A stretch of 63,703 nt of DNA, filler included, from Candidatus Nezhaarchaeota archaeon WYZ-LMO8 (GCA_004347965.1; 3 parts of 3 records of this genome joined end to end with filler, not necessarily neighbours in it); one strand, 5' to 3'; shown: positions 42,001 to 48,000, counted from the whole stretch's first letter. A program made the numbers.

Positions 42001-45000
42001 CAACTAGACGACGGGCCCATCTCGCTAGAGGATATCCTCTCTAGCCGGTTAAAAGGGTTTTCGACCCTACACGAAAACTTTCTTCCGTAATACCTATGCT
42101 TTTGAGGAGCTCTTGCGGTACAACTATTGAGGTTGAGCTTTTTGAAAACTGTTGCTCAATGCTTCGTGTACGTTAGTAAAATCGATGGTAAGTGGATTGC
42201 AGTCATCATTGACGAGAATGAAAGAATTGTTTCTCTAAGCTTGCCTAAGGGTAGTGAAGGTGAGGCTGTCTATGAGGCCAAGAGGGTTGCGGTAGCTAAC
42301 GTGAGCTATAAGTTTAGATCCGAGATGGACCCTTCCACAAGGAGAGTTGGCAGGGAAGTCGTAGAATTCATCAACTCATATATTAAAGGTGATAAACCGA
42401 AGATCACGTTTAAGTTAAATGTTGAAGGGTTAACAAAGTTCATGAATAAGGTGCTAGCAATTGTTAGTTCAATACCTCGAGGCTTCGTGACTTGTTATGG
42501 GTGTGTAGCTGAGGTTATTGAAAACCCTTATGCTTGTAGAGCTGTTGGTAGGGCTTTAGCAATGAATCCTTGGCCAATAATAATTCCATGCCATAGGGTC
42601 GTTAAGAGCGATCTTACGTTAGGTGGTTATAGGGGAGGACTTGATATGAAAAGGGAGTTGCTGAGGATTGAGGGGGTTGCTGTAACTTTGGCTGGCAGGG
42701 TTTTACCTGCGCACTTCTTAGAAGCTAGAAGACTGAGAGAATTGAGTAGAGATGCTGGAGAAAAGCTTTTAACTTCTTAGAGATTGAAGGACTTTTAAGC
42801 TTATTGTAGCTACGTGGTGAAGCTTCATGGAAGAGCTACTGATGATACCGGGTCCAACAAACGTTCACTTAAAGGCTCTCGAAGCTATGCAGAGACCTTT
42901 AACGGATCATAGAGGACCGAAGTTTGAGGAACTTTATGCTGAGCTACTTGAGAATTTAAAGTATTTCTTTCAAACGAGGAAGTGGGATGTCATACCCTTT
43001 ACGGCGTCAGGTACTGGAGCTGTTGAGTGTATAATTAGTAACGCTATCAATCCCGGCGATAAGGTGCTCGTACCCTTATACGGCAACTTCACTAATAGGA
43101 TAAAGGAGATTGTTGAGATCTATTATGGGAAGGTCGTGACCATTAAGATCCCGGAGAGAGAAGCCGTAACGGCAAGTCAAATTGAGGAAGTACTGAAAAA
43201 CGAGAAGGTGAAAATGATCTTCGTAGTGTTCAATGAGACTTCTACGGGAGTTAAGGTGAGAGATTTAAGGGAGATAGCGAAGATAGCACACGATCATGGA
43301 GCACTCATAGCCGTTGACGCTGTCTCAGGCCTAGGTGGTGATGACCTTCCAGTAGAGGATTGGGATATAGATCTATGTGCATCTGCAAGTCAGAAGTGTC
43401 TTGCAGCTCCTCCAGGTATATGCATGGTATCAGTCAGTGACAGAGCTTGGGAGGTAATTAACTCCATGAAAGCTAGGAGTTACTACTTTGATTTAAAATT
43501 GTACAAGAGATTCTTCGTTGAGAGACGCCAAACACCATTCACTCCTGCTATTCCAATCTTTTACGCAGTTAACGAAGCTTTAAAAGTCCTAAGAGAGGAG
43601 GGAATAGAGAACAGGATAAGGAGACACAAGGTCTGTGCTGAAGCTTTCTACGCAGCTATGGAAGCTATAGGGTTGAGCTGCTATGCGAAGAAGGAGTTTA
43701 GGTCGAATACAACAATAGCCGTTGAGGTGCCAAGGAGCTTAAAGGATAGCGATATAAGGAGGATCATGAGGGAGAAGTACGGCGTACACATTGCAGGCGG
43801 TATGGCTGATCTTAGAGGTAAGATAATTAGAATTGGAAGCATGGGAATGGTGAATAGACGAATAGTCATGAGGACCATCAATGCTCTAGAGTGCACACTC
43901 AAAGAGCTTGGATGGAACTTGAGGGTAGGCTCAGGAGTGGAAGCAGCTCTCGAGGTCTTCTCTAAGTATTCAGGGGTTCAGCTCTTATAAGTTTACGTAA
44001 GTTGATTTCATTGTCTCACCTCTTCCCCCGCATCCCGCTCGGTTTCTCATCAGGCTCAGGGGCGTTCAGGGATAACCCCCTGGACCCACATCTTGAGTAA
44101 CTCGGGGAGAGCTGATCTACAGAGCTCTCGACCCCTCATCGGGCTACTTCCACGCACCAATACATATAGGGTACTTATAAGCGCTCCCATCTACATCAAC
44201 CAATGTGGACATGTATGAAAACCGAAACGGCTATGTTAGACGTTTAAGTGAAGAACGTCTTCAGTACTCTTTATGCCATGCTTCATCGCTATGTAGCAAG
44301 CACCCTCTACGCTAACAGCACATGGACCTACAGGATTTATTGGCGTACAAGCTTTACTGTAAAGTGGGCATTCCCAGGGATATATTAAGCCTTTCAGAAC
44401 ATCAGCGCATCTACACCCCTTCGGCATACCCTCCTCGATCGTTACCTCTATGTCGAATCGTTTTAAGGCATCGTAATGCTCAAATTCTTTCTTAAGTTCT
44501 AGCTTAGACATTGGTATTACACCAATACCTCTCCAGTCGCCATCGCATGGCTTAAAGACCTCCGTCATAACTCTCTTCGCTTTAACGTTCCCCTCTCTTT
44601 TAACGCTTCTCGTGTACTCTACCTCAACATCGCTTCTACCATCTCTTATTTGTTCAAGTAACATAACTAGTGATGCCAAGACATCTAAGGGTTCAAAGCC
44701 GCCTATCACCATCGGTTTTCCATACCTCTTGGCTATGGGCACGTAGGGCTCTGATCCTATGATGGTTGACACATGGCCTGGACATATGAAGCCCCCTATT
44801 GCTATGTCACCGCTTTTGAGTAAATGCTCCATAGCTGGTGGTATGAGCCTGTGACTTACTATTAAGCTGAAGTTCTCAGGTACCCCTCTCATTAGCTCTA
44901 TAGCTGTCGTGGGAGCTGTGGTCTCAAAGCCTATGGCGAAGTGCACTACTTCACGCTTAAGCTTCTTGGCAATGCTTATTGAGTCCGCTATGCTGTAGAC

Positions 45001-48000
45001 TATTCTAACGTCAGCACCTCTAGCCTTAGCTTCCATAAGCGACGTACCTCTAGCACCTGGAACTCTAAACATGTCACCGTATGTTGTGAGAACAACGTTT
45101 TTAGATAGAGCGAGGTCTATGGCTGCTTGAATCTCAGCAACGCTCGTAACGCATACTGGGCAACCGGGACCAGATCTAACTTCAAGACCTTTGGGTAATA
45201 GGCTTCTCAAACCAAACCTAGATATTGTCCACTCGTGAGTCGGCCAGGGCTTAACCCCGTGTACCGCATACGTGCATTATTATCAGGTGCTCTAGTGATA
45301 GCTCCTTGAAGAGCGTGTATATCTTCTTGGATAGAGCACTTGCAATTCCTCCGTCTCTAAAAGGCTCAATCATCTCAGCCATACGTTGAGAATGGAGCGA
45401 AGCCTAATAACTGTTTTTCCAACTCTCTTTTATTGCGAGTACGTATGGTTAAGAAGGTCTTAGCGTTAGGCGACTTTCACATACCTGAAAGAGCCTATTG
45501 GATACCTGAAGAGCTAGAGAAGGAAGTTACTAGGGAGAGTTACGACATAGTGCTTTGTACTGGAGATTTAACGACTGGAGAAGTATTATCATGGCTTCAA
45601 AGGCTAGCATCTGAAGTCTACGTGGTAAGGGGCAACATGGATTACTTGAAGCTACCTCTTCAGCTCGTCGTTAATGTTGAGGGTTTAAGGGTTGGATTAT
45701 ATCATGGAGCAGGAGTGCATCCTAGAGGTGACCCAGTTAAGCTAGCGGTTAGGGCAAAGCAAATCAACGTTGAGGTGTTGGTTACTGGGCACACTCATTA
45801 CCCATACACTACATTCGTGAAGGAATATGGAGTCGTAATAGTTAATCCAGGTTCAGCAACAGGTGTTTGGGGCGGTGACGAAAGAGCTACGCTAACACCC
45901 AGCTTTGCAATCATGTGCATTAGGGGTAGGGAGCTACTCATCGAACTAAAAGAGCTAAGAAACTCGCATTTTGAAGTAGAAAAGTACAAGTTTCAATTGT
46001 AGTCTCGTAAAAATGTTTGTTTCGCATAGGTTTAATAAGATTTGATGTTATTCTCCCGCTACTATTATTACGCATGTCTCTTTTCCGTGTAGCGGCTTTA
46101 TCTTCTCTTTAACCTTTCAAAGCTGGGGGTAGTCTCTTCTTTCTGCACCTTGTAACACTAATACACTTTATTACCTCAAACCTCAGCCAAGTATATCCAG
46201 GGAACACTTCATCAAGGTGCTTTAAATATGGAAGTAAGCTAAAGAGCAACAACGGTGGTAGAGTACTTCATTACATTAAGTAAGGAGAAGCAAGGCAATG
46301 ACATTAGCCAATATGAACTGATATAAGGGCTTAACCTCTATAGCTCTAAGCTTATTGCTTTAGCTATTTCTCTCCAAAGTCTTAAAGTCTCTTCGGCTTC
46401 CTCTTGATCTAATACTTGAATTGCATAACCTGTATGAACTAGTACGTAATCTCCAGGTCTTACTTCCTTCTCTAAAAGGGATAACATAACTTCTCTCCTA
46501 ATGCCTCCGAAGTCTACGAGAGCCCTATCCCCTCTAATCTCAACAACTTTACCTGGTACAGCTAGACACATTGCAGCAAGAGGAAGGAAGGGATAACTTA
46601 TAAGTGTAGCTGTCCGCTTTTCTCTGCCCTAAAAACTGTGGAGGTGCTACGATGTCTCTACAGAAAGGAGATTTCGTGCTTGTTGATTACGTGATGAGGG
46701 TTAAGGACACCAACGAGATCATAGACTTAACTATAGAAGAGGTTGCGAAGAAAGAGAAAGTCTATAGAGAAGATGGAGTGTATGAGCCCGCTCTGATAAT
46801 TTTAGGTGAAGGCTGGACCTTAAAGGGTGTTGAAGAGGAGCTCTACAAAATGAATATCGGTGAGAGCAGAGTAATTGAAGTACCTCCCGACAAGGGCTTT
46901 GGTGAGAGAGATCCGAGCAAAGTCAAAGTAGTTAATGCAAGAGAACTTACAAAGCGCGGAATAACTCCACGAGTAGGAGCTAGAGTTGAGCTAGATGATG
47001 GAGTAGCAATTATAAGAAGAGCTGAGGGCGGGAGAGTGATCTTAGATTATAATCATCCTCTCGCTGGTAGAACAATAACGTGTGAGATAAGGGTTGTGAA
47101 GAAGATCGAAGATGTAGAGGAGAAGATAAGAGAGCTAGTACACGTAAGGATTAAGAGGGTCGACAAGGAGAAGTTCAAGATAGACGTATCGAGCGATGGC
47201 GTTGTGTCCATCGAGCTACCTCCTGAAGCCTTCACTTATGAGGGGCTGCAGTATGCCAAGAGGGGCATAGCTATTGACGTCGGTCGCTACATATCCGGGG
47301 TAAGTGCTGTTAAGTTCGTTGAGACGTACACGATAAGCCAGGCAAAGATGGAGAAGGAGGAGGAAAAGGTCAAGAAGGGGTAAAAGAAAAACAAACTTTA
47401 AGTGGGTGCTAAGCTCAAGGTGATCGAATTTCAAGTGAGGACTAAAAGCATTTTAGTGTTCTCTAATCTCTTCTAAGTTAAGCACTATGTGGAAGAGCGT
47501 AGTTAAAAAGTTTGAAGAATCTCCTGCAAAACTAAAGGTTGCCAGATTACTTATAGAGAATGGATTAAGGATAGGGGATGATGGCAAGATATATTGTGGA
47601 GACATCGAGATACCTGACATGAAGATAGCCAGGGTCTTGGATATTGATCGAAGAGTTGTCAGAGAGACCGTGAAGTACATAATGAGGGACGAGGTTTTGC
47701 GAAAGGTCTTCACTATGCTAAGACCGGCAGGAGCTTTACTCAGAGATGTTGCAGCACTTTTTGGTTACGGAGTTCTCGAAATCAGGGCTGATCCAAGTGC
47801 TGTTGGAATAATAGCAGGTGTATCTCAAGCGCTAGCTAGAGCTAACATAAGCATAAGGCAAATTCATGCCGAGGATCCAGATTTAAACCCAGACCCCAAG
47901 TTAATAGTGATAACTGAGAAGCCGGTACCAGGTGAGGTTATTCAGGAAATTCTGAAGGTACCTAATGTAAAGAGTGTAACCATAATTCAAAGGTAGGCGA

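Follow-up and report, generated by a model that had tools for sequence, protein, structure and literature searches.

A Probable Intron Within the Catalytic Motif of hypD

The hydrogenase-maturation gene hypD of a hot-spring archaeon, Candidatus Nezhaarchaeota archaeon WYZ-LMO8, is interrupted by a 22-nt insert that, judging by a comparison of the site across relatives, is very probably a bulge-helix-bulge (BHB) intron spliced from the pre-mRNA by the tRNA-splicing pathway. The gene lies on the minus strand of the stretch of DNA that was analyzed (63,703 nt in full, hereafter the window, to which coordinates refer), and the insert, at 45260..45239, breaks the frame within the catalytic motif MHVCG/THEWT. 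A first-pass annotation had placed a 22-nt insert at C11:16109-16130, which equals window positions 45239-45260 and corresponds exactly to cleavage of both 3-nt bulges after the second base. It had also located the split inside the CG-x-H motif (IMHVCG/THEWT), and the sequence as read confirms this: the upstream frame (45382..45251, minus strand) terminates with IMHVCGTRG and a stop codon. The minus-strand text at the site is ATG CAC GTA TGC GGT AC / A CGGGGT TAA GCCCTG GCCG AC / T CAC GAG TGG, where slashes mark the predicted cuts. The insert, with an in-frame TAA in its hairpin loop, causes a +1 frame shift, and removing the 22 nt gives exactly the uninterrupted motif MHVCGTHE.

Exon 1 (45261..45382, minus strand) reads from an ATG at 45382 to LIIMHVCG, encoding Met1 to Gly40 plus AC, the first two bases of the Thr41 codon. 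It aligns with the N-termini of uninterrupted HypD proteins and of homologues (E 1e-13 to 3e-19 within family f1) and supplies MHVCG. Its 40 codons are open in all nine family-f1 loci, and a median dN/dS of about 0.16 (from the 15 of 36 pairs with unsaturated dS) indicates that the exon is under purifying selection. Exon 2 (44236..45238, minus strand) holds the third base of Thr41, the 333 codons from His42 to the end, and the stop codon, with 57-92% identity to the query across carriers. The downstream frame called there (45210..44236) covers positions 38-350 of 351 in the Pfam HypD profile (E 6.9e-126), in agreement with the start at profile position 38 reported earlier; the earliest possible start codon there (ATG, GTG, or TTG) is a TTG at 45210, ten codons past the His. 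Membership in the HypD family (PF01924) is thus seen both in the profile match of exon 2 and in the alignment of exon 1 to homologue N-termini.

Structure and Conservation of the BHB Motif

The insert and its flanks form a canonical BHB motif of strict geometry, with two 3-nt bulges on opposite strands of a 4-bp helix and further helices flanking both bulges. Together with the extended exon-exon outer helix of the RNAalifold consensus (13 sequences), the whole hBHBh' motif spans 45231..45273 on the minus strand. In the central helix, the exon strand CGGU (45263..45266; the last base of the Cys codon and the Gly codon) pairs with the intron strand GCCG (45241..45244), which is invariant in all 13 introns while the remaining intron is variable. 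The 5′ bulge (45260..45262) is ACA in 12 of the 13 carriers and ACG in the other, with a predicted cut between 45261 and 45260. The 3′ bulge, ACU here (45238..45240), has a predicted cut between 45239 and 45238; its first base is A in 13/13, its second is free to vary (C in five, T in three, G in three, and A in two), and its third becomes the Thr wobble base. With these limits, the intron consists of A, the hairpin CGGGGU-UAA-GCCCUG, GCCG, and AC. The inner hairpin (45245..45259), seen in both fold and alignment, has a 6-bp stem and a UAA loop, and its stem is 4-8 bp long in all 13 carriers. The central helix, the ACA and ACU bulges, and the 6-bp inner helix were all as first annotated. The outer helix had been given as 2 bp, which holds for this sequence, where two contiguous pairs precede an A.C mismatch, but not for the family consensus, where it is longer: UG/CA is invariant and the helix extends with pairs 8-50, 9-49 (the A.C mismatch here), 6-52, and 5-53.

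RNAalifold returned this structure unprompted from the 13 sequences, pairing columns 5-11 with 47-53, 12-15 with 40-43, and 19-23 with 35-39, and leaving 16-18 and 44-46 as bulges. In the minimum free energy fold of the single sequence, the central helix, the first bulge, and the hairpin all recur, and one base of the 3′ bulge pairs otherwise than in the BHB form. Judging by its conservation with covariation in 13 species, the motif is not a product of chance, though single-sequence stability shows no excess over shuffles (z = -0.46, an uninformative score for a 61-nt piece).

The central helix is 100% paired in 13/13 carriers: the first three positions are C-G, G-C, and G-C throughout, and the last is C-G in seven and U-G in six. 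Standard pairs account for 98.0% of pair cells; shuffles give 86.2%, with none of 500 attaining the observed figure, and slid partners give 22-44%. For covariation, the score of 0.302 compares with 0.136 in shuffles (again 0 of 500 reach it) and at most 0.137 in slid controls, and compensatory substitution is evident in six of the seven inner-helix pairs of the family, which have changed on both sides; because the 13 carriers are related, fewer independent observations underlie these counts than their size suggests. No covariation comes from the outer and central helices themselves, as both sit in invariant codons. Synonymous sites are constrained at the paired positions: the third base of the Gly codon, which pairs with a G of GCCG, is a pyrimidine in 13/13 carriers vs. 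7/20 non-carriers, and the Cys codon is UGC in 13/13 vs. 16/20. The third bases of His37 and Glu are also Watson-Crick matched in 13/13 carriers, compared with 14/20 non-carriers plus five U-G; this match was downgraded as proof of the outer helix, the non-carrier pattern being consistent with GC3 bias.

Inserts of 20-28 nt occur at the identical site in 13 of the 35 hypD loci of relatives that span the site (a contig end truncates a 36th match, which was left out). These counts replace the earlier tally of 12 in 28 loci, the additional carrier being G031 (f7). MHVCGTHE is unbroken in all 22 uninterrupted loci, apart from a Ser in place of Thr in one and MDFCG in another. A strict pattern search of 185,579 species genomes turned up 10 stretches, each motif-identical to a locus already found. 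With a loose pattern accepting any 15-45-nt insert at the site, the same 13 genomes were recovered both from 62 genomes of the class and from a phylum-wide sample of 401, and the reversed control gave no matches in the same genome sets; the insert pattern requires the exon context ATGCAYGTNTGYGGN...CAYGARTRB and covers HypD genes with those flanks only. Open-frame length was rejected as a proxy for the insert, as open frames of 360 and 375 aa occur in two carriers. The first-pass annotation had left open whether several gains or many losses underlie the patchy distribution. This is now largely settled: all intron-bearing genes fall within one HypD clade of 17 rows, so that one gain and two precise losses suffice.

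Cut Sites and Alternative Explanations

Cutting both bulges after base 2 or after base 3 yields Thr in 13/13 carriers, restoring GGY-ACN-CAY (Gly-Thr-His) in every case, while cuts at base 0 or 1 yield Thr in only 5/13, the remainder giving Ile, Ser, Asn, or Lys. Sequence does not distinguish a cut after base 2 from one after base 3; in cbf5 introns, cleavage falls between the second and third bulge residues, according to PMC2738675. Insert lengths are 0, 1, or 2 mod 3 across carriers, and 11 of the 13 inserts, including both of 21 nt, contain an in-frame stop; these two properties together make read-through impossible. The comparative evidence fits a BHB intron in the pre-mRNA and none of the alternatives.

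Ribosomes might instead bypass the 20-28-nt hairpin, or shift frame, to make full HypD without splicing of the mRNA, in the manner of phage T4 gene 60, whose gap the hypD insert superficially resembles in its arrangement of hairpin, stop, and Gly: the hairpin is stable, and an in-frame stop lies in or near the loop, shortly past the Gly codon. Such recoding is very unlikely, since take-off and landing codons do not match consistently. Upstream there is always ACA or ACG, but the gap ends in ACT, ATC, ATT, AGT, AAC, ACA, AAA, or ATA, so that a Thr match exists in only 5/13, and no single frameshift rule works given the range of lengths. Recoding would also leave unexplained why GCCG is invariant opposite CGGY, why the bulges are exactly 3 nt, and why the wobble base of the Gly codon is always a pyrimidine. 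Another idea is that the gene is broken, by a disabling insertion that leaves a pseudogene, or split into two peptides (43 aa and 324 aa) that assemble; gene callers would indeed give two ORFs, and the larger has a strong Pfam match alone. We give this equally little credence: the break persists in 13 species with both parts open and conserved (dN/dS about 0.16 for exon 1), it falls between the Gly and the Thr-His of an invariant motif, and a covarying hairpin would not survive in a decaying insertion. A separate downstream product would, moreover, lack THEWTISRFG, because no ATG, GTG, or TTG precedes the tenth codon past the His.

BHB motifs can also serve cleavage without exon joining, as they do in rRNA processing, and the hairpin could be a regulatory element (an attenuator, a protein-binding site, or a site of endonuclease processing without ligation) that lowers or gates hypD expression, with which the in-frame stop retained in 11/13 inserts would agree. 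This is marginally less probable again: without exon ligation there would be no complete HypD, yet the genome has hypC and four hydrogenase-like genes, and cut positions that restore the motif would be a coincidence repeated in 13/13 carriers. An assembly or sequencing artefact is the least probable explanation, to the point of being negligible; the genome is metagenome-assembled and the window consists of contigs joined by N spacers, but differing versions of the insert, with compensatory changes, are found in 13 separate species genomes.

Proposed Splicing Pathway

If the insert is a BHB intron, hypD would be transcribed together with the 22-nt intervening sequence, and the exonic Cys-Gly-Thr-His codons (UG-CGGU-AC...U-CA) would pair with the intronic GCCG and with each other, while the intron hairpin closes the far side to yield the canonical helix-bulge-helix-bulge-helix motif. 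We infer that a heteromeric (alpha-beta)2 EndA would cut between bases 2 and 3 of each bulge, after 45261 and after 45239 on the minus strand, and that RtcB would ligate the exons. The spliced mRNA would read IMHVCG-T-HEWT and encode a complete HypD of 374 aa, while translation of unspliced RNA would stop at the hairpin-loop TAA after 43 codons.

The host encodes two EndA paralogs and an RNA ligase. PF01974 matches two ORFs, of 185 aa and 178 aa. One paralog has its nearest match in chain B of the heterotetramer entries 3p1z and 3ajv (E 1e-49) and the other in residues 15-172 of the fused chain 5x89_A (“EndA-like protein, tRNA-splicing endonuclease”); by these best PDB matches, the two subunits are alpha-like and beta-like. 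RtcB is present as well (PF01139, E 4.7e-181). The genome also has hypC and four NiFe-hydrogenase large-subunit-like genes, and HypD is therefore needed. Alignment of four metatranscriptome runs at 90% likeness, three of them raw-read runs from the same study, placed three contigs from one run and four reads from another, all within 44100-45064; the other two runs gave nothing, and no splice joint was seen. Coverage over 45069-45600 was zero in the four runs, of which only 3-5% of the three large ones was read, and this speaks neither for nor against splicing.

Other Putative BHB Introns and Significance

Scanned strictly for BHB motifs, the whole genome yielded 10012 hits, of which 396 fuse two open frames and 16 (in 15 places) have a good hairpin. 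Three of the 15 places split a Pfam domain: hypD, aIF5B, and uS5, and the domain-splitting inserts of the latter two are likewise kept in relatives. None of the 12 further places had a Pfam domain across the junction; these were gene boundaries or had no match.

A broader and, in our view, doubtful possibility is that mRNA splicing by EndA and RtcB forms a regular, conserved layer of expression in this class, acting on at least three genes (aIF5B, ribosomal protein uS5, and hypD) with strict BHB motifs on invariant codons. Were this so, the hypD intron would have moved with its gene between orders and been lost precisely twice. Selection would preserve both splice competence, as in the pyrimidine-only Gly wobble base, and a fail-safe, as in an in-frame loop stop that alternates among TAA, TGA, and TAG. 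The amount of HypD, and through it the maturation of hydrogenases, would in that case hinge on splicing capacity, which could act as a gate.

Our literature search found no paper describing a BHB intron in hypD. Since 2002, cbf5 has been the only archaeal protein-coding frame known to have a BHB intron, and it was still so in 2020 according to PMC7714728; in papers of 2018 and 2025, the cbf5 work is the sole citation for pre-mRNA BHB introns. If the present cases are true, they would be the second, third, and fourth, from another lineage, with strict motifs and clear covariation, and the tRNA-splicing machinery would edit messages more widely than thought. The hypD, aIF5B, and uS5 introns (20-33 nt) would offer compact natural substrates for studying EndA recognition of BHB motifs outside tRNA, and hypD a clean evolutionary example of an intron on invariant catalytic codons that was inherited with its gene and precisely removed at least twice. 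Gene callers truncate these genes, hypD being called without its catalytic Cys, and for this reason metabolic reconstructions of such uncultured archaea may list hydrogenase maturation, aIF5B, or uS5 as defective.

Comparison With Known Systems

The closest known case is the cbf5 intron of Desulfurococcales and Sulfolobales (Watanabe 2002; Yokobori 2009, PMC2738675), which, like the hypD insert, is short, within a coding frame, and bounded by BHB or BHB-like motifs. The two share predicted cuts between bulge residues 2 and 3, hosts with hetero-oligomeric EndA, and a patchy presence in relatives with inferred gain and secondary loss; they differ in that the cbf5 motif is relaxed whereas that of hypD is strict, and in that cbf5 splicing has been confirmed on RNA whereas that of hypD is predicted. 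Cbf5 is an RNA-modification enzyme and HypD a metal-centre maturation factor, and the exonic half of the hypD motif, unlike that of cbf5, consists of the invariant catalytic codons Cys-Gly-Thr-His. The hypD carriers, labelled Candidatus Nezhaarchaeales/Nezhaarchaeota, Culexmicrobium, and Methanomethylicia, belong to a lineage other than that of the cbf5 carriers. In Haloferax volcanii, the splicing endonuclease acts both in vivo and in vitro on an mRNA, through the BHB intron of HVO_1309, but that intron lies in the 5′ UTR and leaves the coding frame uninterrupted, according to PMC7714728, whereas the hypD intron splits a codon. The hBHBh' introns of archaeal pre-tRNA and pre-rRNA share with hypD the two 3-nt bulges and the 4-bp helix, as outlined in PMC5829648. 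The presumed enzymes, EndA and RtcB, are also alike, while hypD differs in its mRNA host without a tRNA body, in a length (20-28 nt) at the small end, and in an outcome that is a restored frame.

In eukaryotes, a small structured intron is removed from XBP1/HAC1 mRNA by IRE1 and RtcB-type ligation, with a change of frame. A role of RtcB in XBP-1 splicing is noted in PMC8718801. By analogy, the splicing proposed for hypD would work in the same way, through a protein endonuclease, RtcB-type ligation, and a frame change; the IRE1 system differs in using another endonuclease and a twin stem-loop motif, and in being a regulated stress switch.

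Organization of the hypD Locus

On the minus strand of the window, hypD is divided between two reading frames. The upstream frame opens with an ATG at 45382, reads MAEMIEPFRDGGIASALSKKIYTLFKELSLEHLIIMHVCG and then runs on as ...TRG into a TAA stop. The downstream frame (45210..44236, minus strand) carries a Pfam HypD match of E 6.9e-126 that begins only at position 38 of the 351-position profile, as the first-pass annotation had reported for the called frame. The DNA at the junction reads TGC GGT AC|A CGGGGT TAA GCCCTG GCCG AC|T CAC GAG TGG, and removal of 22 nt (45260..45239) leaves TGC GGT ACT CAC GAG TGG, that is C-G-T-H-E-W, the string found in uninterrupted homologues; the contig interval originally proposed for the insert corresponds to exactly these 22 nt. 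The first ATG/GTG/TTG of the downstream frame comes only at the tenth codon past the His, so that a C-terminal fragment translated on its own would miss some of the motif, an argument against independent expression. Splicing would instead produce a mature mRNA in which ...UGCGGUAC is joined to UCACGAG..., with 22 nt gone, and a predicted HypD of 40 + 1 + 333 = 374 aa. A working HypD is to be expected, given that hypC lies nearby (46338-46571, minus strand) and that the genome has four NiFe-hydrogenase large-subunit-like genes. Between hypD and hypC is a calcineurin-like metallophosphoesterase gene on the plus strand (45433-46002; Metallophos_2, E 6.6e-25). The window comprises three contigs separated by N spacers at 29031-29130 and 57032-57131; contig C9 supplies positions 1-29030, and contig C11 the hypD region.

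RNA Structure and Covariation of the Insert

In the RNA, the Gly codon and the base before it, the third of the Cys codon, form the strand CGGU, whose partner in the central helix is GCCG at the insert's 3′ end. The inner part of the insert folds into a hairpin of 6 bp around a UAA loop, and one 3-nt bulge lies on each strand (ACA and ACU). The central helix, both bulges and the inner helix are thus present in the sequence as first described. An outer helix of 2 bp had also been proposed; the UG of the Cys codon does pair with the CA of the His codon, but the consensus of 13 homologous sequences extends this helix further. That consensus, obtained with RNAalifold and no structural hint, is the full helix-bulge-helix-bulge-helix; its 3-nt bulges occupy alignment columns 16-18 and 44-46, and its outer helix reaches out to columns 5-53. 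The single-sequence minimum-free-energy fold reproduces the central helix, the first bulge and the hairpin, and draws the 3′ bulge slightly differently; its energy is not better than that of shuffled sequences (z -0.46).

A search of 41 related genomes for hypD was positive in 35 and returned 36 matches, one of them broken off by a contig end, and the junction was read at the other 35 loci. An insert of 20-28 nt occupies the identical site in 13 of these and is absent from 22. Carriers comprise all nine loci of family f1, to which the genome under study belongs, two genomes of f7 (G031 and G029), one of f8 (G027) and one of f4 (G025). The earlier tally of 12 in 28 loci is hereby superseded through the addition of G031, while the carriers it had named in f1 (nine) and as G025, G029 and G027 all stand. 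The pattern TGC-GGY | ACR | C...hairpin...G | GCCG | ANN | CAY is common to all 13 inserts. Standard pairs fill 98.0% of the pair cells in a 58-column alignment of the 13, compared with 86.2% in shuffles (0 of 500 reaching the observed value) and 22-44% when partners were slid by 1-3 columns. Both sides have changed in six of the seven inner-helix pairs (G-C to A-U, G-C to C-G, etc.). The central and outer helices coincide with invariant codons, and their only variation is at the Gly wobble pair, which is C-G in seven inserts and U-G in six.

A loose pattern admitting any 15-45-nt insert at the hypD site was run on 62 genomes of the class and on a sample of 401 from the phylum, and recovered the same 13 genomes each time; the reversed pattern, used as a control, matched no genome in either scan. 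Across 185,579 species genomes the strict pattern gave 10 stretches, all of them loci already among the 13, labelled Candidatus Nezhaarchaeales/Nezhaarchaeota, Culexmicrobium and Methanomethylicia, with some labels less specific. The insert is a real feature.

Constraints on RNA and Protein

At the Gly wobble base, which has to pair with a G, all 13 carriers have C or T, against only 7 of 20 non-carriers (two non-carriers lacking the search motif were excluded). Insert lengths span 0, 1 and 2 modulo 3, and a stop in the exon-1 frame falls within 11 of the 13 inserts, including both of 21 nt, and usually sits in the hairpin loop. Close relatives exchange TAA, TGA and TAG at this stop, and its position is kept (window 45245-45259 and 12 homologous introns, loci L002-L009, L013, L015, L016 and L018). 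This conserved loop stop may have been selected because it ends translation of unspliced RNA early, or may follow merely from the loops being rich in A/T. No stop interrupts exon 1 in any of the nine f1 loci, and its median dN/dS is 0.16, taken from those 15 of the 36 pairs in which dS was unsaturated.

Predicted Cut Positions and Splicing Machinery

Cleavage of both bulges after base 2 would yield AC+N as the junction codon, hence Thr, in all 13 carriers; in eight of them, cleavage at the bulge start would yield Ile, Ser, Asn or Lys instead. The Thr of the motif is kept in 20 of 22 uninterrupted hypD genes, and base 2 of the 3′ bulge is unconstrained (C in five, T in three, G in three, A in two). 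Cleavage after bulge base 3 would also be compatible, as it too restores Thr. For cbf5 introns, one report places cleavage between bulge residues 2 and 3 (PMC2738675).

The genome has two matches to the splicing endonuclease domain PF01974. The nearest structure to the 185-aa ORF is chain B of the heterotetramer entries 3p1z and 3ajv (E 1e-49), and that to the 178-aa ORF is residues 15-172 of 5x89_A, a fusion chain named "EndA-like protein, tRNA-splicing endonuclease". We take the two ORFs to be, respectively, the catalytic alpha and the structural beta subunit of EndA; the pair is encoded at L041:1228-1785 and L042:1474-2010 (minus). The RNA ligase RtcB is also encoded. The (alpha-beta)2 form of EndA is the type reported to accept BHB motifs outside the tRNA context (PMC5829648).

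Candidate Introns Elsewhere in the Genome

When the 1.35-Mb genome was scanned for strict BHB motifs, 10012 hits were returned, 396 of which fuse two open frames; a requirement for a good hairpin (inner stem of at least 5 bp, loop of at most 12 nt) left 16 hits at 15 places. At three of these, hypD, aIF5B and uS5, a Pfam domain is split over the junction, and at the remaining 12 no Pfam domain is so split. The aIF5B/IF-2 insert (33 nt; C77:21331-21363, locus L052:532-564, outside the window) splits ...REVGAM|TQHIGAS, with GTP_EFTU profile positions 4-30 upstream and 60-183 downstream; its outer helix has 6 bp (GTTGGG/CCCAAC), its central helix is GCCA/TGGT and its hairpin has 11 bp. Of the 30 loci read in relatives, 21 have an insert at this site (10 in f1, four in f3, one in f2, six in f5), and the aIF5B insert is therefore more widely spread than the hypD intron. 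The uS5 insert (29 nt; C72:142-170, locus L053, outside the window) splits ...QKQTD|AGE, and Ribosomal_S5 starts at profile position 17 with the first residue downstream. It occurs in 14 of 30 loci (10 in f1, four in f3), the other 16 having an unbroken CAAACNGATGCNGG. The hairpins of both inserts covary, and the cut rule of hypD restores conserved residues in both.

A cbf5-like gene (TruB_N; C1:76339-76644, loci L050 and L051, outside the window) occupies an open frame that is just 269 aa long; the strict scan flagged no BHB candidate there.

Evolutionary History of the Probable hypD Intron

In a maximum-likelihood tree of 35 HypD rows (loci L001-L030 and L044-L048), rooted at the midpoint only, all 13 carriers fall within one clade of 17 (support 91/82), made up of f1 (9/9 carriers; 100/99) and a group of f4, f7 and f8 (4/8 carriers; 100/99). 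Presence and absence of the intron require three changes on this tree, most simply read as one gain and two precise losses, with one loss placed in G023, the sister of the carrier G029 in the same genus, and the other in the group of G015, G018 and G021. HypD of f1 clusters with f4/f7/f8 instead of f3, a family from the same order as f1 (91/82); therefore, hypD may have moved between orders together with its intron. One carrier, G025, has two hypD copies, one intron-bearing and one intron-less. Taken with the placement of f1, this suggests either gene transfer or an old paralogy of hypD in the class.

Transcript Data and Comparison With Known Introns

Four metatranscriptome runs were compared with the locus, and 3-5% of each of the three large ones was read; no read or contig covered the junction. 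Run X1 gave contigs 92-97% alike that span the 3′ part of hypD as well as the spacer that follows it, and run X4 gave four reads, with all placements within 44100-45064. These placements fit the presence of a close relative in the sampled material and are no proof of transcription, because DNA may occur in such libraries.

In the open-access literature and bioRxiv, our search turned up no paper that describes a hypD intron, nor any on new coding-frame BHB introns from these lineages. Comparative sequence evidence strongly supports the reading of the hypD insert as a BHB intron in an archaeal pre-mRNA, a known kind of intron of which the hypD case would be a new instance.
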